From assembly GCA_964588425.1 (NCBI GenBank), contig CAZPPN010000001.1:1-38627 (forward strand): 38,627 nt of DNA. Direction: 5' to 3'. Origin of the DNA: an uncultured Ruminococcus sp. (GTDB lineage: Bacteria > Bacillota > Clostridia > Oscillospirales > CAG-272). The notes below the pieces were generated by a model. The model was not told the DNA's origin. It made no database searches and worked only from the letters and a program-made list of their open reading frames with translations. A program made the position numbers and the translations under genes. Positions 1-38,627 of the stretch are shown here, piece after piece; within the stretch, counting starts at the first letter, position 1; each line of letters starts with the position of its first letter.

Positions 1-75
1 TTGCCGGAGTTTACCGCCGCTGATCTGTAGCCGGAGTTTACCGCCGCTGAGCTGTCTCCGGAGTTTACCGCTTTT
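1..75. repeat. 27-bp tandem repeat (gccggagtttaccgccgctgaNctgtN), coding; same array as 38498..38627
   Basis: Direct reading: about 2.7 units at the window start, in frame (9 aa per unit: SAAVNSG[YND][RSE] on the minus strand). Confidence 0.9.
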
Positions 76-509
76 ACTTCGTTCGGTATTTTTGCGATTT
101 TCTCTTTTATGTATTCAGTCTCAGCTTCCACAAGCCCGTCAATTCCGATTTTTGCGCCGATTTTTAGCTTTTTGGCGCAAAACTTCTCGTTGTCATCGGT
201 GTATGTCTCGTCAAGCGCTTCGACTTCGCAAAACTCGTTCAGATCGCCTTTAATGTTGCACGGCTCATAATATAGCAGCACGTCAAGCGGTCGGGCGCAG
301 AAGTGCATGCCTTTTTGGCAAATCTCCGCTTTTTTTTCCTCGAATACGGTGTTTTCGGCGTACTGCTTATCTAAGCACGTCATATCCGGGTTAAATCCTT
401 TGTAGCCTTTCATTTTCTTTTCCTCGCCGTCCGCAGCTTTCACCACCGTCTCAAACGGACGCGCATCGCGGTGATTCTTCAGTTTGAATTTCAGTCTGTA
501 TGTTTTCAT
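1..509 (-). CDS. N-terminal part of the junction-spanning gene: conserved N-domain (KGFNPDMTC...GMHFCARPLDVLLYY) followed by SAAVNSG nonapeptide repeats; continues at 38296..38627
   Basis: ATG at 507-509 with AAGAGGA upstream. The frame is open to the window edge. After collapsing the 49-bp overlap the frame runs into the ORF that stops at 38296 (792 nt, 263 aa). Confidence 0.75.
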   Translation of the reverse strand, partial: MKTYRLKFKLKNHRDARPFETVVKAADGEEKKMKGYKGFNPDMTCLDKQYAENTVFEEKKAEICQKGMHFCARPLDVLLYYEPCNIKGDLNEFCEVEALDETYTDDNEKFCAKKLKIGAKIGIDGLVEAETEYIKEKIAKIPNEVKAVNSGDSSAAVNSGYRSAAVNSG

Positions 510-552
510 GAATGTCCTCTTGATTTGGATTTTGTATTTTTGCAGTTAATAT

Positions 553-1485
553 CTACTTGTTTTTGTGAAATATCCCTTTATGCGTCTCACACCAATCATC
601 CCAATCAATAGTACGCCATTGACCCGAATATATATATTTCTGTGCCATAACATTTTGCCAATGTTCGGGCATTTCGCCAATTCTCATGTCTTTATATGGC
701 ATACCATAAATAGTTACAGATTTTAATTTGCGCATAGCATATATGCGTTGCAAATTATCATTCAAATCTTTTTTCAATAATATGTATATAAACAATTTTG
801 AGGTTGGTATCCCTTTTTCACAAAGAAGATCGGCCGCCCTGTACATACCTTCAATTTGCGGCTTCCTATCCACAGAAAACCGAATATATTTGATCCATTT
901 CAGTTCTGCAAATATGCCGGCAATTTCGGGGGTAATCGTAAATACACTTGTTGCTTGATTTATATCTATTCGATAATCTGTTTGGGATAGTTGTCGCAAT
1001 TGTTCAATTCCATGAGGATGAGATGTTATATTGTTATCCATCAACACAATTTTCTTTGTGTCGGGACGTACTATTTCTTGCCATTTTCTATATGGTTTTA
1101 TTTCGCCTTCTTTTTGAGGTACATAGCAGTTTTTGCATCTATTCGGACAACCTCGCGTTAAAAAACCAATTGCATAATCACAATCAGGATATATCGAATA
1201 GTCGGGAAACATATCATCTATTTCATCAGGCAGGTTCTCATAAATCCCATATCCTGTGCCCCCCTTTACTGTATGCTCTGGCAAATAAGGATTTTCAGGG
1301 GTAAAATCAAACACCTTACTTGAATATACTTTATCATACATCGAAGCGGATAGAGCGTTAAACCACTCAACAATATCACCTTGCTTTTTGTGATACGCAG
1401 ATATTTTCATCAATGCATAGTTGGGAAATTTGTCTTTTCTTTTCAAGTGTTCCGCATCAGCATCGTGCAATGCTATGTACATCAT
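553..1485 (-). CDS. Radical SAM enzyme with B12-binding-like N-terminal domain, function unknown
   Basis: CX3CX2C motif in GFLTRGCPNRCKNCYVP. N-terminal Rossmann-like segment FPNYALMKISAYHKKQGDIVEW. 4-nt overlap with the upstream ORF. Confidence 0.8.
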   Translation of the reverse strand: MMYIALHDADAEHLKRKDKFPNYALMKISAYHKKQGDIVEWFNALSASMYDKVYSSKVFDFTPENPYLPEHTVKGGTGYGIYENLPDEIDDMFPDYSIYPDCDYAIGFLTRGCPNRCKNCYVPQKEGEIKPYRKWQEIVRPDTKKIVLMDNNITSHPHGIEQLRQLSQTDYRIDINQATSVFTITPEIAGIFAELKWIKYIRFSVDRKPQIEGMYRAADLLCEKGIPTSKLFIYILLKKDLNDNLQRIYAMRKLKSVTIYGMPYKDMRIGEMPEHWQNVMAQKYIYSGQWRTIDWDDWCETHKGIFHKNK

Positions 1486-1817
1486 CTTCTCCTCCCGCAG
1501 CGTGCCGCACGTCTGATCTCGTCGGGCGTTACATACCCGAGTCGGCGCGGATCGGGATCGCGTTCATCAATGTACACATCACGTACCGCCGAACGTTTCC
1601 TGCCGCGCTCTGACGTTCCCGGATTTCTGTCGGGTGACATCACGGCAAGCATCACAAGGATCACAATGGACCACATCACACACTCAAGCGCAAGCACCGC
1701 ACGGCAGAGTGTGCCGAATTCCGCCGAATCCATCCCGATCAACGCCGCCGCACTCCCTCCGAAGATCAGCCAGTACAGCACAAATCCGACAGCTGTTTGG
1801 ATTTTGTTCGTTTTCAT
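1482..1817 (-). CDS. Small membrane protein (two predicted TM helices, Arg-rich C-terminal tail)
   Basis: Hydrophobic stretches AVGFVLYWLIFGGSAAALIG and VMWSIVILVMLAVM. Start and stop overlap both neighbours by 4 nt. Confidence 0.6.
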   Translation of the reverse strand: MKTNKIQTAVGFVLYWLIFGGSAAALIGMDSAEFGTLCRAVLALECVMWSIVILVMLAVMSPDRNPGTSERGRKRSAVRDVYIDERDPDPRRLGYVTPDEIRRAARCGRRR

Positions 1818-2050
1818 TCCGCAGCCTCCATCTCAAGCCAGCATTTTATGCATTTCTTGCAAATGTTTTCGTCAAAATCTTCGATATCAAAATCGCCGTA
1901 TTGGTTTTTTATCGTTTTCTTCTGCATACATCTGCCCGAATGATACATCGTATTGCATGGCTGATCCATACCGACTACTCCGTCACATATCATCTCCGCT
2001 AACTTCCCGGGTGTGTTACATGTTTCTATGATCTTATCAAAGTTTGTCAT
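1814..2050 (-). CDS. Cys-rich small protein (78 aa), unknown function
   Basis: ATG at 2050 preceded by GGAGGAAAGAAGA and overlapping the upstream stop (ATGA). 8 Cys, including a C-terminal CKKCIKC. The track start at 2137 lacks an RBS. Confidence 0.6.
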   Translation of the reverse strand: MTNFDKIIETCNTPGKLAEMICDGVVGMDQPCNTMYHSGRCMQKKTIKNQYGDFDIEDFDENICKKCIKCWLEMEAAE

Positions 2051-2475
2051 TCTTCTTTCCTCCTTAAATCTTCTTCCGTGCAGCCGAGAGCATCGCATAA
2101 CTGCCGTACTTTCACAGGCTTCGGATCTGCCGCGCACATCTCGTACAGGTGTACCGAATTAACACATATTCCTGCGGATACCGCAAGCTCCTTCTGAGTC
2201 ATTCCCGCTTTGAGGCGAACCCGCTTCAGTCCGGGCAGTCCTGTTTTTATCGGACGCTTCTTTGCCCGTTCGAGGTCTCTTTGATGCTTGGCAGTCATTA
2301 CGGCGAGATGCCTTTCCTCAGCCTGTCTCTTCTGTTCGCATAAGCATTTCCATGAACAGTAGTATTTGCCCCTCCGATCCCGATATGCCCATATGCTCGG
2401 ATCAAACAACCCGAACTCCCTGCCGCATATCGGGCACGACCGTCGGAAGTTGTTGTATATGTAGTCACGTTCCAT
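2047..2475 (-). CDS. Zn-ribbon plus C-terminal XRE-type HTH protein
   Basis: CPICG...CSWKC pairs. HTH segment GMTQKELAVSAGICVNSVHLYE. Internal ATG at 2475 chosen because the longer ORF overlaps the upstream gene by >140 nt. Confidence 0.6.
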   Translation of the reverse strand: MERDYIYNNFRRSCPICGREFGLFDPSIWAYRDRRGKYYCSWKCLCEQKRQAEERHLAVMTAKHQRDLERAKKRPIKTGLPGLKRVRLKAGMTQKELAVSAGICVNSVHLYEMCAADPKPVKVRQLCDALGCTEEDLRRKEE

Positions 2476-2980
2476 TGCCGTACGCCCTCGATGCTGCTGC
2501 AGCGAAAAATTCATCTGTATCAAAACTGCTCTCGCGTGACTCATCTTCGCTCTTTCCGTTGAGGTACTTTTCGAATTTCGGACCGAAAAGCGTCTCAGGG
2601 CAAAGATACTTCTCAAACCTTGTCCCCTGCCATTCGCGATATTTGACTTCTATAACCTTTTCAAAGTCCTCGCGTTTGAATCCCTCGTTTACTCTTGCAT
2701 TGATGAGTTTTTTTGTATTCGCAGAAGATGTACGATACTTTGTCCCGCAGATATGATTGAGATAACCGACGATGTATGATACTTCTTCAGGCGAAACACT
2801 CACCGTGCGCTTGTTGTCATGGTCGATGATCTTTGTCAGTTCTTCAAACTCATCATCCGAATCGCGCTGTCCGAGACCATATGACATTATGTACTCCATT
2901 GCGTCCGCTTTTCTGCACTCGGGGAGCATCACAAAAGCAGCCGCAAGTTTTCCGCTGAAAAGAAATTTTTTGTTTTCCAT
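2465..2980 (-). CDS. Replisome organizer / DnaD-like protein carrying the conserved phage C-terminal domain
   Basis: YLNHICGTKYR...LINARVNEGFKREDFEKVIEVKYREWQGT..EKYLCPETLFGPKFEKYLN matches my memory of the TIGR02220-type domain. Confidence 0.7.
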   Translation of the reverse strand: MENKKFLFSGKLAAAFVMLPECRKADAMEYIMSYGLGQRDSDDEFEELTKIIDHDNKRTVSVSPEEVSYIVGYLNHICGTKYRTSSANTKKLINARVNEGFKREDFEKVIEVKYREWQGTRFEKYLCPETLFGPKFEKYLNGKSEDESRESSFDTDEFFAAAASRAYGNGT

Positions 2981-2985
2981 ATTTT

Positions 2986-3270
2986 TTACTCCATGTTGAA
3001 TTTCTCGACTGTTGCCTCATATCGCTCTGCCATCCGCTTGAATTCTTCGAAATCGACAGGCTCAACATCTTTGATCTTCGCAATGCTGATCGAATTTCGG
3101 TTTTTGTCTTCGAGTTCAGCCTCTCCCCTCTCCGGCGGATAACCTCTGCGTAAAATCTCGTATTCAGTCGAATATCGAATAGCAAGCGCTGAAATACGGT
3201 TGTATCTGATTCCTTGGCATACCACCGGGATTCTCCACCTTGCCGCTAACTTTGCCTCATCAACCGTCAT
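2986..3270 (-). CDS. Hypothetical early protein
   Basis: 94-aa ORF in the tightly packed early operon; 4-nt overlap with the upstream ORF. Confidence 0.55.
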   Translation of the reverse strand: MTVDEAKLAARWRIPVVCQGIRYNRISALAIRYSTEYEILRRGYPPERGEAELEDKNRNSISIAKIKDVEPVDFEEFKRMAERYEATVEKFNME

Positions 3271-3500
3271 TCTGCTTCAAGCTCCTTTCTTCTTTGTTTT
3301 TCGATTTCCTTTTTGCGTTTTGCCACACACGCCGGAGAACCGGAACAGACTTCTTTCGTGCACGTCCTGCATATATCAGCATCTTTCATGCACTCTATCT
3401 TCTTGTTAGCTCTTGCTCCGTCTCCGCTGACTCTCTCACTGTCAAAAGCGTGAAAACATCCGTCAGCACCGCATGATCTTCTGATTGATCCTCTTGACAA
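3267..3500 (-). CDS. Hypothetical Cys-rich early protein (77 aa)
   Basis: TTG at 3500 preceded by AAGGAGGAATAAA. The longer track ORF (to 3644) would overlap the upstream gene by about 140 nt. Confidence 0.5.
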   Translation of the reverse strand: MSRGSIRRSCGADGCFHAFDSERVSGDGARANKKIECMKDADICRTCTKEVCSGSPACVAKRKKEIEKQRRKELEAE

Positions 3501-3501
3501 T

Positions 3502-3726
3502 TTATTCCTCCTTGTCTGCCGCAAGATGCTCACGAAACCATTCCTCGCCCAGCCGATCGAGAAGCGTTCGACTGAATCGGGCTGCGGCCTTGCGTAATGC
3601 TTCGTTGCGCTTTTCCTGCTGTTCGGGTGTCCTGACAGGATCATATACTATCGTTGTGCAGTTGTTTCCCGATATGTATGTTACGTTGTATTCGATCCCG
3701 TTTACTGTTTCTCTCTGACTTTCCAT
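3502..3726 (-). CDS. Hypothetical early protein
   Basis: ATG with AAGGAAGGTG 7 nt upstream; 74 aa. Confidence 0.6.
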   Translation of the reverse strand: MESQRETVNGIEYNVTYISGNNCTTIVYDPVRTPEQQEKRNEALRKAAARFSRTLLDRLGEEWFREHLAADKEE

Positions 3727-3788
3727 CCGTGAGCACCTTCCTTTCTTTACTTATTCAATCTTATTCCTGTAGTCTTTCGCTAATGCTG

Positions 3789-3965
3789 TCATGATGCCTT
3801 GTCATCTTTGCCTTCCTCGGGCGAAGTCTTTTTTCTGTTCTCCGCGATCTTGATGCCTGCTATGATGCCGTTGAGATGTGTAAGCGCAAGCTCCCTCTCG
3901 ATCGGCGTCATCTCGTTGAGTACGGCTACAATGTTTTCTGCGTTTGTTCTTTCTGCTGTTGTCAT
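3789..3965 (-). CDS. Small first gene of the early operon (58 aa, below the ORF-track cutoff); Cro/early-regulator position
   Basis: ATG at 3963-3965 preceded by GGAGGTCAGAAAA. Translation MTTAERTNAENIVAVLNEMTPIERELALTHLNGIIAGIKIAENRKKTSPEEGKDDKAS. No recognisable HTH, so the functional call is positional only. Confidence 0.55.
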   Translation of the reverse strand: MTTAERTNAENIVAVLNEMTPIERELALTHLNGIIAGIKIAENRKKTSPEEGKDDKAS

Positions 3966-3978
3966 TTTTCTGACCTCC

Positions 3979-4007
3979 TTGATTTTTGTTTTTGTTTGAG
4001 TTATAAT
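3979..4007 (+). promoter_or_regulatory. Sigma-A-type promoter, TTGATT-17 nt-TATAAT
   Basis: Read directly from the sequence; 45 nt upstream of the 4053 ORF. Confidence 0.6.
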
Positions 4008-4052
4008 GTGTTTAAGGTGGTGATTGCTTTGGATAACTACGATTACAAAATT

Positions 4053-4388
4053 ATGAATTTCATTTGTTCTTCAACATCTGATGTTGTTCGGATGTCCGAT
4101 ATTTCCGTGAAGTTCGGTGCTGCCGGACGCGAATCAGCCGTTTCCCTTTGTAAAAACAAACTTCTTTCATGGGCTTATTCGGAAGATGATATCTTTTCCC
4201 ATGATGAATACGGTATTATCAAACCCACACCGAAAGGCTTGCTTGAATACGAAAGGTTCAAATATAACCGCCAGCTCCGAAAAGGTGAGGTTTGGCGCGA
4301 ACGGATCTTCGGCTATGTCATCGGTGTGCTTACTCCGGTTACAGCATACCTTATCACAGAGTTCGTAATACCTCTATTATGTAAATAA
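4053..4388 (+). CDS. Tail-anchored (C-terminal TM) small protein, lysogeny-side accessory gene 'a'
   Basis: ATG at 4053 (alternative TTG at 4029 after AAGGTGG). C-terminal hydrophobic FGYVIGVLTPVTAYLITEFVIPLL. The track start at 3876 overlaps the divergent gene. Confidence 0.6.
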   Translation: MNFICSSTSDVVRMSDISVKFGAAGRESAVSLCKNKLLSWAYSEDDIFSHDEYGIIKPTPKGLLEYERFKYNRQLRKGEVWRERIFGYVIGVLTPVTAYLITEFVIPLLCK

Positions 4389-4458
4389 TCGCAAGCCCCG
4401 TAAAACTCCCTAAGAGGTAAAATATTATGGCTAAAAAATCGAACCCGTTGTCTTTCAC
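4354..4458 (-). CDS. 34-aa hydrophobic peptide ORF (MKDNGFDFLAIIFYLLGSFTGLAIIYIIEVLRTL), type I toxin-like
   Basis: GTG at 4458 preceded by AAGGAGGGCGAGAGG. The same RBS-start block recurs at 5226. One TM-length hydrophobic core. Its 3' end overlaps gene 'a' by 35 nt. Confidence 0.4.
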   Translation of the reverse strand: MKDNGFDFLAIIFYLLGSFTGLAIIYIIEVLRTL

Positions 4459-4478
4459 CCTCTCGCCCTCCTTGTGTG

Positions 4479-4507
4479 TTGATTTTCAAATGTGTTTGGT
4501 GTATAAT
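4479..4507 (+). promoter_or_regulatory. Sigma-A-type promoter, TTGATT-17 nt-TATAAT
   Basis: Read directly. Sequence-similar to the 3979 promoter (TTGATTTT...GTTTG..TATAATG). Confidence 0.55.
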
Positions 4508-4527
4508 GGCTATGGCTGTTGATTTCA

Positions 4528-4677
4528 TTATCTCGAGACTTTCAGCAACAGATCGCCAAGTTCCCGATATACTTTATGTACTGCGGATTCGATTGTCGGC
4601 TTTGGCTTCTCCGGAAAGTTCCGCTGATCTTCACTAAACCATATCTTAATCAGTTCATATATGTTCATTGCTTTCAT
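4528..4677 (-). CDS. Small hypothetical protein (49 aa; MKAMNIYELIKIWFSEDQRNFPEKPKPTIESAVHKVYRELGDLLLKVSR)
   Basis: Sub-threshold ORF. GAGAGGA lies 8 nt upstream of the second ATG (4668). Composition is more protein-like than the overlapping + strand ORF 4519..4716. Confidence 0.4.
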   Translation of the reverse strand: MKAMNIYELIKIWFSEDQRNFPEKPKPTIESAVHKVYRELGDLLLKVSR

Positions 4678-4739
4678 CCTCTCGCTCTTCTAATTTTTTA
4701 TTTTAATGATTTTTAATCAACCGCAGAAAGGATATGATT

Positions 4740-5126
4740 ATGTCTTTACAATCTAAAAAGGTCTTAAACGATCTTATAAGATGTCAACGCTTTGAGGGAA
4801 ACGAAATTTTTGTTGATTATGATTCTCAAACTATCGGGGGATTCCATGAAAATGAAGAAAGCGATTTATCTGTTAATTTTCGTTATCCGGAATCGGAAAT
4901 GATATCAATATTTAACCATCTTGCATCGGAAGATTATATTATTGATACATCCGGCGGATACTGGAATTGTCTGAGCGTTACCCACAAAGGAAATCACCAT
5001 ATTCAAACTGCCGTTTCAAAAATATTTAGGTTTTTGTCCGAATCGGTTGTTGTCCCTATAATTGTCGCGTTTCTGACTTCAGTTGTTTATAATCTCTTGG
5101 CTCGCTGGTTTCCGTGGCTCAGATAG
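4740..5126 (+). CDS. Tail-anchored (C-terminal TM) small protein, accessory gene 'b' (same architecture as 4053..4388)
   Basis: AAAGGA 7 nt upstream of the ATG at 4740 (the ATG at 4734 is too close). C-terminal VVVPIIVAFLTSVVYNLLARWF. Confidence 0.65.
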   Translation: MSLQSKKVLNDLIRCQRFEGNEIFVDYDSQTIGGFHENEESDLSVNFRYPESEMISIFNHLASEDYIIDTSGGYWNCLSVTHKGNHHIQTAVSKIFRFLSESVVVPIIVAFLTSVVYNLLARWFPWLR

Positions 5127-5226
5127 ATATTAACCAATCAAGAATAATGTTGCATATCAAACTTGCAATAAATGCCACGATTGAATTAAATAATATCGGA
5201 TGTTTTTTGCGAAATCTTTTATCCAC
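5119..5226 (-). CDS. 35-aa basic/hydrophobic peptide ORF ((M)DKRFRKKHPILFNSIVAFIASLICNIILDWLISI), type I toxin-like
   Basis: GTG at 5226 preceded by AGGAGGGCGAGAGG (a block identical to that at 4458). A consensus promoter lies 60-85 nt upstream. Its 3' end overlaps gene 'b' by 8 nt. Confidence 0.45.
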   Translation of the reverse strand: MDKRFRKKHPILFNSIVAFIASLICNIILDWLISI

Positions 5227-5284
5227 CCTCTCGCCCTCCTGTGTTTTTGACTCAAAATTCATCACATCTTTGTGTTGTGTACTC

Positions 5285-5313
5285 ATTATATCATATGGTT
5301 TTTGAGTTGTCAA
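5285..5313 (-). promoter_or_regulatory. Leftward consensus promoter TTGACA-17 nt-TATAAT
   Basis: On the plus strand: tgtcaa at 5308-5313 and attata at 5285-5290. Confidence 0.65.
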
Positions 5314-5358
5314 CCACTTTTTCAAAAAAATTAACTCAATATTTTTTCCCAGATTGAG

Positions 5359-5387
5359 TTGACAACTCTTTTTGAGTGTGCTATAAT
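5359..5387 (+). promoter_or_regulatory. Rightward consensus promoter TTGACA-17 nt-TATAAT for the XRE repressor gene
   Basis: Read directly. Its -35 lies in GTTGACAACTC, the inverted repeat of GAGTTGTCAAC, which holds the leftward -35. Confidence 0.7.
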
Positions 5388-5410
5388 ATATTCACACGGA
5401 GGTGAGGACT

Positions 5411-5797
5411 ATGAAAGATAGATTTAAGCTACTACGCAAAACACTAAATCTAACACAAACTGGCATGGGTGAAAAACTCGGAGTGAGTAGAGATGTCATC
5501 ACTAATATCGAACAAGGCCGAGTAGAAGCCAAACCAATTTTTATAACACATCTTTGCGAACTTTACGGCGTAAGTCAAACATGGCTTGAAACAGGCGAGG
5601 GCGAGATGTTTGAACCGCAGACACAGGATGAAGAACTTGCACAGCTGTTCGGTGATCTGCTCGGCGATCCCGATGACACTTTCAAAAAACGCTTCATAGC
5701 CGCCCTGCTCCAGCTCGATCCGAACGAATGGAGCGCAATTGAACAGTTCTGCCGCGCTGTAATCGACTCCCGAAACGAAAAAAAAGAGGACGGATGA
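5411..5797 (+). CDS. XRE-family HTH transcriptional repressor (CI-like, no S24 peptidase domain)
   Basis: GGAGGTGAGGACT precedes the ATG. HTH segment LTQTGMGEKLGVSRDVITNIEQGR. Sits at the divergent promoter region. Confidence 0.8.
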   Translation: MKDRFKLLRKTLNLTQTGMGEKLGVSRDVITNIEQGRVEAKPIFITHLCELYGVSQTWLETGEGEMFEPQTQDEELAQLFGDLLGDPDDTFKKRFIAALLQLDPNEWSAIEQFCRAVIDSRNEKKEDG

Positions 5798-5815
5798 AAA
5801 AATCTGTCCTCTTTT
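5786..5815 (+). terminator. Rho-independent terminator
   Basis: Stem gaggacgga/tctgtcctc (one G-U) followed by TTTT; overlaps the repressor stop codon. Confidence 0.6.
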
Positions 5816-5905
5816 GCTGTTTATTGCGTTTCCCCCTTGATATCTTATGCCGAAAGTAGTATAATTGTTTTATAAACTAAACATTGCATTTACGAGGATT
5901 TTTCT

Positions 5906-6970
5906 GTGATTGTATCAAATATATTACTGTACGGCGGCATATATATATTATTTTGCGGTTTAATTATCGCACCTGAATTTTCATCTCCGGTGTGGTGGAT
6001 TTTGATGATAATTGGTGCTGTAATGATAATTATATCTCGTATATGTTATCGTTCCGCCAAAGAAAAAAAGGAAGCTGCGCTTCAAGCCCATCTTGATGCT
6101 ATTGAGAAAGTAAATCAAGCTCTCCGCGCCGCCGAAGAAGCAAAACGCCAAGCTCGTCTTGAGGCAGAAGCAGCCGAGCGTCAAGCCCGTATTGAGGCAG
6201 AAGCAGCCGAGCGTCAAGCCCGTCTTGAGGCAGAAGCAGCCGAGCGTCAAGCCCGTCTTGAGGTCTATCGGGAAGAGCTGCGACAAAAAGAAGAATATGA
6301 GCGTCTTGAACGCGAACGCTTTCGCGGATTGCTTCTTTCCATTCCGAAATACGATATTACGGTAAATCCCTCTGCCGCAAAACAAAATATCAATGTAAGT
6401 GATTTTTATTTGAACTACACATCTCTACGAAAAAACCTAAATTTATCACGTGTTTCCAGTTTTGTCGCAATCGATACGGAAACCACAGGGCTTGTTCCCG
6501 GCAAAAATAAGATAGTTCAAATTTCCGCTATCCGTTTTGAAGAATTCATACCGTCCGAGATATTCACTACATACATTAACCCGGGGTGTTCGATCCCCTT
6601 AGAAGCCACGGATATACATGGGATTACAGATGAAATGGTATCCGATGCACCTCATTTTGAATGTATATTAGATTCATTGGAAGAATTTATCGGGGCATCC
6701 ACTCTTGTCGGGCATAATCTTCAATTCGATCTGAAGTTTTTGAGAAAATTTGGGTATGACAGCTTTAAACTGAATCGTTCTTATTTCGACACTCTGACAC
6801 TTAGCCGATTATACGATGACATTAGCAGTCATAGACTTTACGATGTGTGTAAAAAACACGGTATATATTATACTGCTCACGATTCATCCGAAGATGCTCT
6901 TGCATCAGGTCTTCTGTTTAAAAAATACTTGAAGATGAAAATCGGAGAGTGGTACGAAAGGCAGATATAA
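5906..6970 (+). CDS. Membrane-anchored, coiled-coil, DEDDh 3'-5' exonuclease (DnaQ/epsilon-like domain)
   Basis: Two N-terminal TM helices, an (RLEAEAAERQA)n repeat, Exo I AIDTETTG, Exo II GHNLQFDLKFL, Exo III HDSSEDA. GTG start with GAGGA 8 nt upstream. Confidence 0.8.
   Translation: MIVSNILLYGGIYILFCGLIIAPEFSSPVWWILMIIGAVMIIISRICYRSAKEKKEAALQAHLDAIEKVNQALRAAEEAKRQARLEAEAAERQARIEAEAAERQARLEAEAAERQARLEVYREELRQKEEYERLERERFRGLLLSIPKYDITVNPSAAKQNINVSDFYLNYTSLRKNLNLSRVSSFVAIDTETTGLVPGKNKIVQISAIRFEEFIPSEIFTTYINPGCSIPLEATDIHGITDEMVSDAPHFECILDSLEEFIGASTLVGHNLQFDLKFLRKFGYDSFKLNRSYFDTLTLSRLYDDISSHRLYDVCKKHGIYYTAHDSSEDALASGLLFKKYLKMKIGEWYERQI
6154..6262. repeat. 33-bp tandem repeat x3.3 (cgtcttgaggcagaagcagccgagcgtcaagcc), coding for the coiled-coil spacer
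   Basis: Read directly. In frame; 11 aa per unit. Confidence 0.9.
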
Positions 6971-33776: not shown

Positions 33777-34544
33777 TCACCTCCTCGCATACTTCGCAAG
33801 ATTCGCCCCGTCAGGCTTGTACATCACAAACGTCATGTAATACGTCCCGTTCACAGGATTTTTCACGATCTTCGGGAACTCACTCAGATAATACCCCGGA
33901 TATCTGTCCGCAAAAAACTTGTGCGGAGATCCTGCATCATCAATATCGCAAAGATCACGCTTGCTCCATTGGTTTTTGTCTGCCTTTTCTTCCGGCTTTC
34001 TGAGATTACGTGATCCGCTCCATCTGCGCTCACCCACATGACGTTGATCCGCTATGTATGCCGATAAATCCACAACACCGCACTCGTCAAATTCGAGTTC
34101 CTTGTAATTCAGTCGACCCATTCCCCACGCCGCTTTGATCTCATCCTTGCTCACACCGCCGGAGAATATAAAATGCAGATGCAGTCTGCCCTTTTCCTCA
34201 CCGTACGCACGGATACAGATCCACTTGAATTCACATCCGGCTTTTTTGTATAACCGAGCCACACGCTGAATATAATTTCTTATGTCTTTCTCAAATCGCT
34301 CTTTGCTGTCGGGATAACAAGCATCGGAATATGTCGGATCAAAGCTGTATGAGTTCCTGTCAAAGTTCTCGTGAATCAGCCATGTGAGATATTCACGAGA
34401 ATGGCGTTCGTTGAGCTTCTTCTGTACATCAGAGGATTCACGAAATTTGCCGCGTCTTGCTCCGGCTTTGCGATAAGTGCCGTATACTACCCCAAATAAC
34501 ATCTCCCCGGCACTCACGGTCTTGCCCTTGTATTTACACTGCAT
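33777..34544 (-). CDS. HUH-type rolling-circle replication initiator-like protein
   Basis: Motif I-like SFDPTYSD, HUH motif GRLHLHFIFSG, Tyr motif DLSAYIADQ, then WSGSRNLRKP. GGGAGGAATGGAAG precedes the ATG at 34544. Confidence 0.55.
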   Translation of the reverse strand: MQCKYKGKTVSAGEMLFGVVYGTYRKAGARRGKFRESSDVQKKLNERHSREYLTWLIHENFDRNSYSFDPTYSDACYPDSKERFEKDIRNYIQRVARLYKKAGCEFKWICIRAYGEEKGRLHLHFIFSGGVSKDEIKAAWGMGRLNYKELEFDECGVVDLSAYIADQRHVGERRWSGSRNLRKPEEKADKNQWSKRDLCDIDDAGSPHKFFADRYPGYYLSEFPKIVKNPVNGTYYMTFVMYKPDGANLAKYARR

Positions 34545-34595
34545 CTTCCATTCCTCCCATGTGTGTGAATTATTAAGATTACTTACAAGGTTCAA

Positions 34596-34932: not shown

Positions 34933-35628
34933 TCATTTTGTTCGATTGTCCGTATACCGAATTTCATGATTCCCGCAAATCAGCTCCTCAGCATACGGCA
35001 GAGATTCCACCCATCTGCAGAACTCACGCCACTCCGCGAGCTTGTGATTCCGCCGCGCACGGTACATCCCATAGAGATTCTCATAATCCATCGTACACGT
35101 CCGCATCTGATTTAACGATGACGGCAGCAGCTGAATGATGTTGTCAAAATACGCCTCCTTTGCATCCCTGTCATTCTCCCGGTTGTACAGCGCAATGTTC
35201 TCGTTGATCTCGTCAATCGTGTATTTCAAGAGCTGTATCGCTCTCGTTGATGTGATCCTCTCTGCCGAAAAATCCTCCGATACCAGCGGCCTCGCGCAGA
35301 CCGTGTGCATCGTGGAACACGAATTCGCGACGGTGCCGACCTTGTATGTGTCGTATTCCTTCCACCAGTACAGCGGCGCGGTGATGTCAACCGACACAAA
35401 TATCTGCCGCATGAATTTGCGGTGATCCGATCCCGATCGCACAAGCCGCATCGCAAGATCAAGATCATCATCCCCCATGAAGAACGCAAAATGTGCCGTG
35501 TTCTCCGTTTCCGGATTCTCGATGTGCGACGAATAGCTGTCCGAGCGATCCCACGAGTTCATCGGATTTCTCATGCCCCTGATCGCGTTGTCCATGTTCA
35601 TTACGGATGTGCGTTCAAGTTTGATCAT
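34933..35628 (-). CDS. ThyX-fold (flavin-dependent thymidylate synthase-like) protein lacking the RHR...S.R signature
   Basis: By-eye alignment to T. maritima ThyX. [24 protein letters not shown] aligns with [51 protein letters not shown] aligns with [26 protein letters not shown]. The RHR position reads TYK. Confidence 0.55.
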   Translation of the reverse strand: [231 protein letters not shown]

Positions 35629-36184
35629 TTTCTTTTACCTCCCTTACCGTAAAATCGTCCCACTCCGGCTTGTTCTCCGTCGTCCATATACAGCACATCA
35701 GATTCCAGCAGACTGCGCGATCATGCCGCTCGTCCGTGTCCCCGCGCAGATACTTGAGGAAGTGCCGCAGAGCCGAATCTATGTAGCTGTGTACCGGAAT
35801 CCCCCTCTGCCAGTTGTGTTCGCCGTATTTTGCCGCACCTGCTTCAAAGTGCAAAGCCAGCTCGAGCAGCATATCAGACCAACCGTTCCACTCACGCCAG
35901 CCGATGAACGTCCACAATGCCGACTGCAAGTGTGCCGTATCACCATCCTCACGAAAGAGATGTATCTGCCGGAAGATGTTCGCGATGTCCGGTGATTCCC
36001 CGAGATATCGGTCGTAGATGTCGGCGATCACGTCAAGCGGCATGAGGTCACATCTGCCCTTTGCCTCACCCATGTCACGTACTGCCCCGGAAGCGAACGT
36101 GCGTCGGTGTCCGCTGTCGGGGAGGCTTGCGGAAAGATCAATGTCACACTCCCCATTGGTTGTTTTAATCCATTTGTTTTCCAT
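35615..36184 (-). CDS. MazG-like all-alpha NTP pyrophosphohydrolase (dATP/dGTP diphosphohydrolase-type domain)
   Basis: GAVRD..EAKGRCDLMP...LALHFEAGAAKYGEHNWQRGIP...SALRHFLKY pattern. AAGGAGAACGAAG precedes the ATG. Confidence 0.65.
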   Translation of the reverse strand: MENKWIKTTNGECDIDLSASLPDSGHRRTFASGAVRDMGEAKGRCDLMPLDVIADIYDRYLGESPDIANIFRQIHLFREDGDTAHLQSALWTFIGWREWNGWSDMLLELALHFEAGAAKYGEHNWQRGIPVHSYIDSALRHFLKYLRGDTDERHDRAVCWNLMCCIWTTENKPEWDDFTVREVKENDQT

Positions 36185-37163: not shown

Positions 37164-37616
37164 TCAGAACGGCAGGTCTTCATCATTGCCGATTTCCTCA
37201 AACTTCGGCGCATTCGTGTACTGCTCCGGTATATACGTCTGCTCTGCCGTTTCCGGGGATGTCACCTGTATGGGCATCTCATCCTTTGAGTCCACAAAAT
37301 ACGCCTCTTCCGCCACGATCTCCGTCGAATACCGCTTGTTCCCCTGCTGATCCGTCCATTGCCTGTTCTGCACCGTTCCGATGATGCAGATCGACGAAGC
37401 CTTGCGGAAATACCGCGTGATAAACTCCGCCGTGCCTCTCCATGCCTGTACGTTGAAGAAATCCGATGCCTGTGTCCCCTCTTTCGCCCTCGGTCTGTTC
37501 ACGGCAATTGTGAATGTGGTAACCGATATGCCGCTCGGTGTGGTTTTAAGCTCCGGATCGGCGGTCAGGCGTCCCCCGAGAATTATTTTGTTAAAATTGA
37601 AATTTGCCATTGTCAT
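37164..37616 (-). CDS. ssb: Single-stranded DNA-binding protein
   Basis: OB-fold N-terminus NKIILGGRLTADPELKTTPSGISVTTFTIAVNR and acidic tail DEDLPF. The start may be the ATG at 37610. Confidence 0.9.
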   Translation of the reverse strand: MTMANFNFNKIILGGRLTADPELKTTPSGISVTTFTIAVNRPRAKEGTQASDFFNVQAWRGTAEFITRYFRKASSICIIGTVQNRQWTDQQGNKRYSTEIVAEEAYFVDSKDEMPIQVTSPETAEQTYIPEQYTNAPKFEEIGNDEDLPF

Positions 37617-38296
37617 GATCTCCTTTTTGTATGTTTCTTGCTGATAATCTTACCGTATTCCTCAACCGTGATCCCGATCTTTTCAAGCTCCGATATGTTA
37701 TTCTCAGCATACCGCTTGTACAGTTCTTCGATGTCGCAGTCGCATTTCAGCCACGCTTCTACAAATGCATTGTATTCACTCCGCACAATTTTGTATAACC
37801 GATACAGCCGGACTTTCCCAAACCCCGGTCCACGGACGTACTCGAAGAGATTAAGCAGATATACTCGCACTATAACCTCCTCGTTCTTCGCCCACTCCAA
37901 TCGATTCCGGTGTATCGATTTCAGATCACTGTTCATGTATTTCGCCGTCAGCGGATCATGCCATACCGTCTCCTGCTCTGCCGCCCGGAAGTCAAAACCG
38001 CATTCTTTCAGATGAGACTGCATCATCCACATCGCGCTCTCGGCAGTGTCGCGTATCATGTCGGTGTCATCGTAGTCTACCCTGATCTCTCCCGTCGTGT
38101 CAGCCGCCATGCTCCGTACCATAACGTCGGATAAGGTCTCCTTTGTCTCGTCATACATCCGCTGTACAGCAGCCGCCGTCCATTTAAAATCCCGCCTGAG
38201 AGCCATCCCGGCTGCCGAATCAAGAACCGAAAGGAACAGCGCACCGACCCGATCCCGCGATTTTTTCGCCCGAGTCAGATCAACAGCACATTTCAT
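37613..38296 (-). CDS. Hypothetical early protein (227 aa)
   Basis: The ATG overlaps the upstream stop (TGATG). Confidence 0.6.
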   Translation of the reverse strand: MKCAVDLTRAKKSRDRVGALFLSVLDSAAGMALRRDFKWTAAAVQRMYDETKETLSDVMVRSMAADTTGEIRVDYDDTDMIRDTAESAMWMMQSHLKECGFDFRAAEQETVWHDPLTAKYMNSDLKSIHRNRLEWAKNEEVIVRVYLLNLFEYVRGPGFGKVRLYRLYKIVRSEYNAFVEAWLKCDCDIEELYKRYAENNISELEKIGITVEEYGKIISKKHTKRRS

Positions 38297-38627
38297 CAGT
38301 CTGTTACCTCCACAAACTCACCGTTCACGAGCTTGTACCATGTGTCAGCCTTGATCTTCTCGCCATCTACCTGTACAGACTGCAAGTCGGTTCTGTGCCA
38401 TTCACACTCAATCTCTTTCCACTCGGTCAGCACAAGCCAACCGCCGAGAGCCGCTTTTGCTTTGCTGTCGATTCCGAGCGCGATTGCAACGCCCTCATTG
38501 CCGGAGTTTACCGCCGCTGATCTGTAGCCGGAGTTTACCGCCGCTGAGCTGTAGCCGGAGTTTACCGCCGCTGAGCTGTTGCCGGAGTTTACCGCCGCTG
38601 ATCTGTAGCCGGAGTTTACCGCCGCTG
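38296..38627 (-). CDS. C-terminal part of the junction-spanning repeat protein (see 1..509)
   Basis: Frame ...SAAVNSGYR SAAVNSGNS SAAVNSGYS SAAVNSGYR SAAVNSGNE GVAIALGIDSKAKAALGGWLVLTEW...EFVEVTD, stopping at 38296-38298. Confidence 0.75.
   Translation of the reverse strand, partial: AAVNSGYRSAAVNSGNSSAAVNSGYSSAAVNSGYRSAAVNSGNEGVAIALGIDSKAKAALGGWLVLTEWKEIECEWHRTDLQSVQVDGEKIKADTWYKLVNGEFVEVTD
38498..38627. repeat. 27-bp coding tandem repeat, about 4.8 units; the last 49 nt duplicate nt 1..49
   Basis: Read directly. Confidence 0.9.

Follow-up and report, generated by a model that had tools for sequence, protein, structure and literature searches.

Two groups of described proteins come closest to the radical S-adenosylmethionine (SAM) enzyme encoded near the left end of the stretch of DNA considered here, the contig CAZPPN010000001.1 of an uncultured Ruminococcus sp., which was analyzed over its whole length of 38,627 nucleotides (nt) and is referred to as the window. 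The first is phrog_9298 of the PHROGs collection ('radical SAM domain protein'), which has members in Bacteroides LoVEphage, Phocaeicola phage PV4-TP1, Clostridium phage phiCT453B and Methanomassiliicoccales virus vir215; the window enzyme is 28-45% identical to the annotated phage genes of this family and lies at the same position in the early/replication module. The second comprises the methylthiotransferases MiaB, MtaB and RimO, which share with it an N-terminal flavodoxin-like domain followed by a radical SAM barrel. A preliminary description of the window had joined the enzyme gene and the two small genes upstream of it, one for a Cys-rich protein of 78 amino acids (aa) and one for a 111-aa protein with two transmembrane (TM) segments, into a translationally coupled trio. 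We arrive at a different arrangement: very probably, these genes are not a trio and the enzyme is a mobile stand-alone cassette. Two unrelated units would then lie end to end, namely a lineage block of four genes, for a Phg_2220_C protein, a helix-turn-helix (HTH) protein and the 78-aa and 111-aa proteins, and after it a single-gene cassette.

The case against a trio is made by the lack of co-occurrence of its supposed members, the near-ORFan character of the two small proteins, homology breakpoints that fall on gene borders and the outlying GC content of the enzyme gene. The lineage block is conserved on contigs that are independent of each other and come from different samples (L090, L092/L100, L093, L094/L095, L101 and L102); on these, the genes for the Phg_2220_C (171 aa), HTH (148 aa), Cys-rich (75-78 aa) and two-TM (111-112 aa) proteins are joined by overlaps. 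In the first four of these sibling lineages the HTH, Cys-rich and two-TM genes show 4-nt overlaps, and it is these lineages, at least four in number, that keep the small genes and lack the enzyme. The enzyme is absent wherever a contig extends past the two-TM gene; contigs L101 and L102 end before that point and are not informative in this respect. Nucleotide homology of 92-98% between L090 and the window extends to position 1482, the stop of the two-TM gene, is then interrupted by 461 bp containing a 37-aa open reading frame (ORF) in L090, and resumes at 543. With L100, homology is lost at the same base, 1482, and found again from 509; the 1.8 kb that intervene in L100 encode a DUF6273 protein and a 179-aa protein. 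A tblastn search of these sibling slot gaps detected no enzyme remnant. The enzyme gene has a GC content of 36.3% and a GC content at third codon positions (GC3) of 32.8%, as opposed to 46.3% for the window and 56.8% for the two-TM gene. Judged from these alignments, a hypervariable slot separates the two-TM gene from the gene for a DUF7666 repeat protein; the enzyme appears to be one among several alternative occupants, and the short spacer downstream of the enzyme gene (Table 1) would be the distal edge of this slot. Sibling phages with and without the enzyme thus differ by a clean single-gene insertion or deletion, and what the window newly provides is this natural presence/absence pair for a known but uncharacterized family, ready for comparison of DNA modification or host range.

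Two further observations were made on the variable region and its surroundings. At L007:2712-3797, a DUF7666 protein with long NSGNW repeats is encoded upstream of the enzyme; the corresponding gene lies downstream of it in the window, an example of cargo genes being rearranged in the variable region. In L090 (4100-5004), the Cys-rich and two-TM genes are separated by two additional genes, one for a 76-aa protein and one for a 225-aa protein that matches HNH_3 weakly, which means that even this pair can be split.

The same conclusion is reached when the enzyme, and not the lineage block, is taken as the starting point. We compiled 86 enzyme loci, consisting of 80 from IMG/VR (48-76% identity), annotated phages and closer metagenomic relatives, and phmmer at E <= 10 retrieved relatives of either small protein from none of them. 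The preliminary description had staked its grouping in advance on the three genes traveling together; with the small partners in 0 of 86 enzyme loci and at least four lineages that have the partners without the enzyme, they do not. The genes directly upstream and downstream of the enzyme vary between loci. In the closest relatives, which are 69-78% identical, the enzyme is preceded by the gene for an unrelated 101-aa two-TM protein in L004, for non-membrane proteins in L006 (85 aa), L087 (84 aa), L007 (64 aa) and L008 (100 aa), and for a C5 methyltransferase in L088. The order two-TM gene, then enzyme, was seen only in L103, which is 99% identical and represents the same phage, and in L104 (78% nucleotide identity).

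A functional module of three genes, in which the Cys-rich protein would be an iron-sulfur or zinc accessory or a precursor resembling those of ribosomally synthesized and post-translationally modified peptides (RiPPs), while the two-TM protein would anchor, export or confer immunity, is accordingly very improbable. The recurrence of the two-TM gene before the enzyme in L103 and L104, a different two-TM protein whose gene has a 4-nt overlap with the enzyme start in L004, the coupling of the genes by ATGA overlaps with Shine-Dalgarno sites and the six invariant cysteines of the 78-aa protein all speak for such a module. It is contradicted by at least four sibling lineages that have the small genes but no enzyme and by at least 80 loci in which the enzyme occurs without the small genes, and the enzyme is devoid of a SPASM/twitch domain or RiPP recognition element (RRE) domain of the kind that RiPP maturases carry. 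Family members show no enrichment of small Cys-rich ORFs next to them (12/51 versus 45/268, p = 0.24), and the TM proteins of the window and of L004 are not detectably homologous (BLASTP E = 0.23, hhalign probability 0.3%), so that a relationship between the two was rejected. The RiPP-like reading with the Cys-rich peptide as substrate fails because of the same presence/absence evidence and the missing enrichment of Cys-rich ORFs. Two cases nevertheless count against a completely free-standing enzyme: L104 is a diverged relative and has the two-TM gene directly before the enzyme, and the 76%-identical enzyme of L004 follows a two-TM protein, albeit a different one. A loose link of the enzyme with a small membrane protein therefore keeps a small residual probability.

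The overlapping junctions on which the trio had been founded are real. The three consecutive minus-strand ORFs overlap by 4 nt each, as described, and the junction sequences GGGAGGAGAAGATGATG, GGAGGCTGCGGAATGAAA and AGGAGGAAAGAAGAATGACA consist of ATGA start/stop overlaps with a GGAGG Shine-Dalgarno-like site before each. One of these overlaps, at 2047-2050, places the stop of the upstream HTH gene on the ATG at 2050, and the coupled run consequently has at least four genes and not three; the HTH gene in turn overlaps the Phg_2220_C gene by 11 nt. The 78-aa frame is counted here from the internal ATG at 2050 of a longer, GTG-started frame (1814..2137). Among the 52 same-strand junctions of the window, eight are 4-nt overlaps, eight are other overlaps and 15 are gaps of at most 20 nt. 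Since overlaps and short gaps are this common, the 4-nt overlaps are nothing special here and represent the ordinary tight packing of this genome. They permit translational coupling, and this part of the earlier proposal stands; they carry no information on shared function, and the trio as a unit does not stand. The trio is an accident of gene order and is in itself of no importance, whereas the enzyme is of modest importance.

The enzyme itself was assigned to a family by profile searches. Residues 109-237 match the radical SAM family PF04055 of Pfam with 34.8 bits (gathering cutoff 29.5), and residues 17-304 align with positions 10-296 of the 305 positions of the phrog_9298 profile (E = 6.4e-71). 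The CX3CX2C motif noticed at the outset corresponds to C113, C117 and C120. It is invariant in 36 close relatives as well as in 100 distant representatives, which are 26-51% identical to the window protein. Family-wide, these 100 representatives have no further conserved cysteine; C102 is invariant within the close clade only. As only the three radical SAM cysteines are conserved, an auxiliary cluster and a SPASM/twitch domain are lacking. From its sequence, the enzyme qualifies as a true radical SAM protein of a stand-alone, single-cluster type. It is a new member of an already known, uncharacterized family: full-text literature searches found no paper characterizing phrog_9298, and the articles consulted bring up radical SAM in other contexts only. 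The curated families of NCBIfam gave no usable match (best score 14.7 bits, cutoff 251), none of the defense-related models of PADLOC matched, and a sequence search of the Protein Data Bank (PDB) with the enzyme alone found nothing below E = 0.5. The family profile yielded sub-significant PDB matches only, to MiaB (E = 0.15, cluster loop and next strand) and to spore photoproduct lyase (0.4).

An AlphaFold2 model built on the 36 relatives has a mean local confidence (pLDDT) of 92.3 and a predicted TM-score (pTM) of 0.86. It consists of an N-terminal flavodoxin-like alpha/beta domain (approximately residues 1-100) and a partial TIM barrel of the radical SAM type. The best solved structures found with Foldseek were those of MtaB (9a6d, TM-score 0.63), MiaB (7mjw, 0.63) and RimO (4jc0, 0.49), followed by BlsE; TM-scores are normalized to the query, E-values for the three methylthiotransferases range from 3.6e-9 to 7e-6, and sequence identity is 13-15%. 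The profile searches and fold prediction suggested in the preliminary description thus placed the enzyme in PF04055 and phrog_9298 with a confident model, and they returned no family match to QueE or NrdG.

The likeness to methylthiotransferases ends with the fold (TM-scores 0.49-0.63). The three-cysteine site for an auxiliary [4Fe-4S] cluster in the N-terminal domain of MiaB, MtaB and RimO is missing in the window enzyme, which also gives no UPF0004 hit with Pfam. Their C-terminal TRAM domain is absent as well: Pfam reports no TRAM hit, and the chain terminates in short helices at residue 310. Without the auxiliary three-cysteine site, sulfur insertion in the manner of MiaB or RimO is not possible, and the enzyme, while methylthiotransferase-like in shape, cannot be a methylthiotransferase. 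The possibility that it modifies tRNA or rRNA, i.e., a MiaB-like target with different chemistry, and thereby tunes translation during infection appears decidedly unlikely to us. The closest folds are indeed those of the tRNA methylthiotransferases MtaB and MiaB, a profile alignment with MiaB covers the cluster loop and the following strand (only at E = 0.15), and the isoelectric points of the family are mildly basic (median 8.6). On the other side are the missing TRAM RNA-binding domain and auxiliary cluster and neighboring genes for enzymes directed at DNA and not at RNA.

Class B (cobalamin-dependent) radical SAM enzymes resemble the window protein in having a Rossmann-like domain ahead of CX3CX2C, and the N-terminal segment had originally been regarded as B12-binding-like. 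The Rossmann- or flavodoxin-like nature of this domain is borne out by the AlphaFold2 model; B12 binding is not, as no profile hit was obtained and the nearest counterpart is the N-terminal domain of methylthiotransferases. Specifically, there is no hit to the B12-binding domain PF02310 of Pfam at E <= 0.1, the class B families TIGR04013 and TIGR04072 of NCBIfam score 11.6-14.7 bits against cutoffs of 251-360 and align in the cluster loop only, and no cobalamin-dependent structure is found among the top 50 Foldseek matches in the PDB. SPASM/twitch enzymes (RiPP maturases and others) differ by their C-terminal Cys-rich auxiliary domain, which has no counterpart here; the absence of conserved C-terminal cysteines agrees with the original assessment. 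The same holds for the dissimilarity to QueE and NrdG, which are also phage-borne members of the radical SAM superfamily and differ in architecture, with no Pfam or NCBIfam match of the window enzyme to either; partner genes of the queC, queD, folE or nrdD type were not seen in the surveyed parts of the window. Spore photoproduct lyase, methylation of the RlmN/Cfr type and RiPP maturation were considered as activities because their motifs are similar and were rejected, the second catalytic cysteine or the required domains being absent or not conserved.

Judging from its membership in the superfamily, reductive cleavage of SAM by a single [4Fe-4S] cluster bound by C113, C117 and C120 would yield a 5'-deoxyadenosyl radical, and this radical would then abstract a hydrogen from the substrate. 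By analogy with MiaB and RimO, the substrate may be held between barrel and N-terminal domain, and the cluster-less flavodoxin-like domain probably provides a pocket for substrate or cofactor.

The phrog_9298 family is large. A total of 6,615 relatives were found among 5.8 billion proteins, and representative clusters at 50% identity number 3,316 at E <= 1e-3 and 509 at E <= 1e-30. The relatives occur on phages and plasmids of Bacillota, Bacteroidota, Thermotogae, Proteobacteria and archaea; the phages have Bacteroides/Phocaeicola, Clostridium, Oscillospiraceae, Marinitoga and Methanomassiliicoccales as hosts, the plasmids Bacteroides, Selenomonas, Trichlorobacter, Pelobacter, Methylorubrum, Bosea and an archaeon. 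Within the family to which the host of the window belongs, 2 of 200 other genomes searched contain the enzyme, and none of three genomes of the same genus does, which is the pattern of a mobile accessory gene. With thousands of members, a confidently predicted fold and a clear catalytic motif, the family is one of the larger ones without a known function among the enzymes of gut phages and plasmids.

The genetic environment gives a weak hint at a substrate. In 61 dereplicated loci we surveyed the genes within 4 kb of the enzyme and found a DNA methyltransferase in 28 and a PAPS-reductase/DndC-like PP-loop gene in 11, the latter as a rule immediately downstream; genes of the Rep-like, RecU and YopX types are also often found nearby. 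On a Trichlorobacter plasmid the enzyme sits among two PAPS-reductase genes and a cytosine methylase, and in one representative of 812 aa (P0125) it is fused via a Cys-rich linker to ParB_N and HTH_ParB. A PHROG scan of this linker and of the extra domains of two further fusion proteins (P0127, P0143) gave no match, and an apparent fusion with an ABC-ATPase (P0129) was disregarded as a probable artifact, as the ATPase sits after a truncated enzyme. The methyltransferase and PAPS-reductase neighbors, the Trichlorobacter plasmid and the ParB fusion favor DNA or nucleotides as substrate, and the early-operon position behind a consensus promoter was counted in the same direction. Modification of nucleic acids, with phage DNA, a nucleotide or tRNA as the most likely class of substrate, is our tentative lead, somewhat short of an even chance. 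The most likely role would be an early-expressed, optional epigenetic or anti-restriction one, analogous to that of the neighboring DNA methyltransferases. As the best overall explanation we regard it as reasonably probable that the region combines a lineage block with an accessory radical SAM cassette for which a nucleic acid is the likely class of substrate.

Several points weaken the assignment of a nucleic-acid substrate. The 28/61 and 11/61 are counts without a matched control, and genes for methyltransferases and PAPS reductases are often present in the early regions of phages in any case; in this window, neither a DNA methylase nor a PAPS reductase is encoded beside the enzyme; and the function of the enzyme is wholly inferred. 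Furthermore, the enzyme belongs to a subclade (approximately 66-100% identity) that has NQA[T/M]SVF around residues 178-182, where more than 90% of the wider family has NQGMDAR. The residues A178, S180 and F182 of the subclade replace G, D and R, which are found in 92%, 94% and 91% of the 100 representatives and also characterize phrog_9298. Loss of the conserved Asp and Arg may reflect a change of substrate, and the activity of the subclade may differ from that of the rest of the family.

Counter-defense, with a host protein or a small-molecule immune signal and not a nucleic acid as the target, is an unlikely alternative to nucleic-acid modification. It would be in line with the early-operon position, the patchy accessory distribution on phages and plasmids, the unrelated cargo in the sibling slots and the fact that RimO, a structural relative, modifies a protein; however, no PADLOC defense-related model matched, no candidate target is known, and the ParB fusion and the neighborhoods with methylases and PAPS reductases favor DNA. 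Returning to nucleic-acid modification, the more specific idea that phrog_9298 enzymes use radical chemistry to introduce an undescribed modification into the DNA or the nucleotide pool of the mobile element is doubtful at present. If true, such a modification would offer an escape from host restriction in place of methyltransferases, and it would explain why the family has spread through phages, plasmids and conjugative elements of both bacteria and archaea and why it is occasionally fused to ParB.

Table 1. Features of the radical SAM region and its flanks (positions in the window)
Feature	Position	Strand	Remarks
Radical SAM enzyme	553..1485	-	310 aa; phrog_9298; cluster cysteines C113/C117/C120
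111-aa protein	1482..1817	-	two predicted TM segments, basic tail; apparently lineage-specific near-ORFan
78-aa acidic Cys-rich protein	1814..2050	-	six invariant cysteines; apparently lineage-specific near-ORFan
HTH (Cro/C1-type) protein	2047..2475	-	N-terminal Cys motif; first gene of ATGA-coupled run
Phg_2220_C (DnaD-like) replication protein	2465..2980	-	head of conserved four-gene block
DUF7666 repeat protein	3..509	-	downstream flank of variable slot; runs off contig end
Intergenic spacer downstream of enzyme gene	510..552	-	sibling homology resumes at 543 or 509
Predicted sigma-70 promoter	5285..5313	-	12/12 consensus, TTGACA-17-TATAAT, TG-extended; faces early operon

The two small proteins have few relatives. 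Each is represented by only three other clusters among the 5.8 billion proteins (67-97% identity), and on these grounds both appear to be near-ORFans specific to this phage lineage. In the 78-aa protein, the cysteines C22, C32, C41, C64, C67 and C70 are all invariant among the four known relatives and may possibly bind a metal; an AlphaFold2 model from four sequences was uninformative (pLDDT 51). The 111-aa protein has hydrophobic segments at approximately residues 9-29 and 34-60 and then a basic tail, which bears out its description as a two-TM protein.

The window is one whole contig of a 458-contig genome bin (78% complete). It encodes terminase, portal, major head and tape-measure proteins and a serine integrase, in addition to SSB, a Rep-like protein, DUF1064 and a MazZ-like NTP pyrophosphohydrolase domain, and is the genome of a temperate siphovirus. 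A 49-bp direct repeat at its ends (1-49 and 38579-38627) suggests a circular and complete contig, and the phage genome is probably complete and circularly assembled. As the repeat is located in the part of the DUF7666 gene that encodes tandem NSG repeats, an assembly artifact is possible; the DUF7666 gene probably continues at 38296-38625.

The radical SAM region belongs to the early lytic operon and adjoins a replication gene, as had been proposed. No terminator-like site was found between the genes of the region, and an Rfam scan of positions 1-6000 of the window revealed no element. The promoter listed in Table 1 probably drives the early operon that holds the genes from 3 to 2980.

Inteins were observed in two family members: in representative P0237, one with a LAGLIDADG homing endonuclease separates GFL from TRGC immediately ahead of the first cluster cysteine, and an intein is also annotated in the homologue on the archaeal plasmid LC711081.1. 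Elsewhere in the window, the minus-strand gene at 35615-36184 encodes the N-terminal domain of a dATP/dGTP diphosphohydrolase (PF18909, MazZ-like) and shares its operon with the genes for SSB (37164-37616) and the REP_ORF2-G2P-like Rep protein (33777-34595). A second perfect promoter (12/12, TG-extended) is arranged divergently and back to back with the early promoter within 5285-5387 and faces a CI-like HTH gene (5402-5797); this pair is the probable lysis/lysogeny switch.

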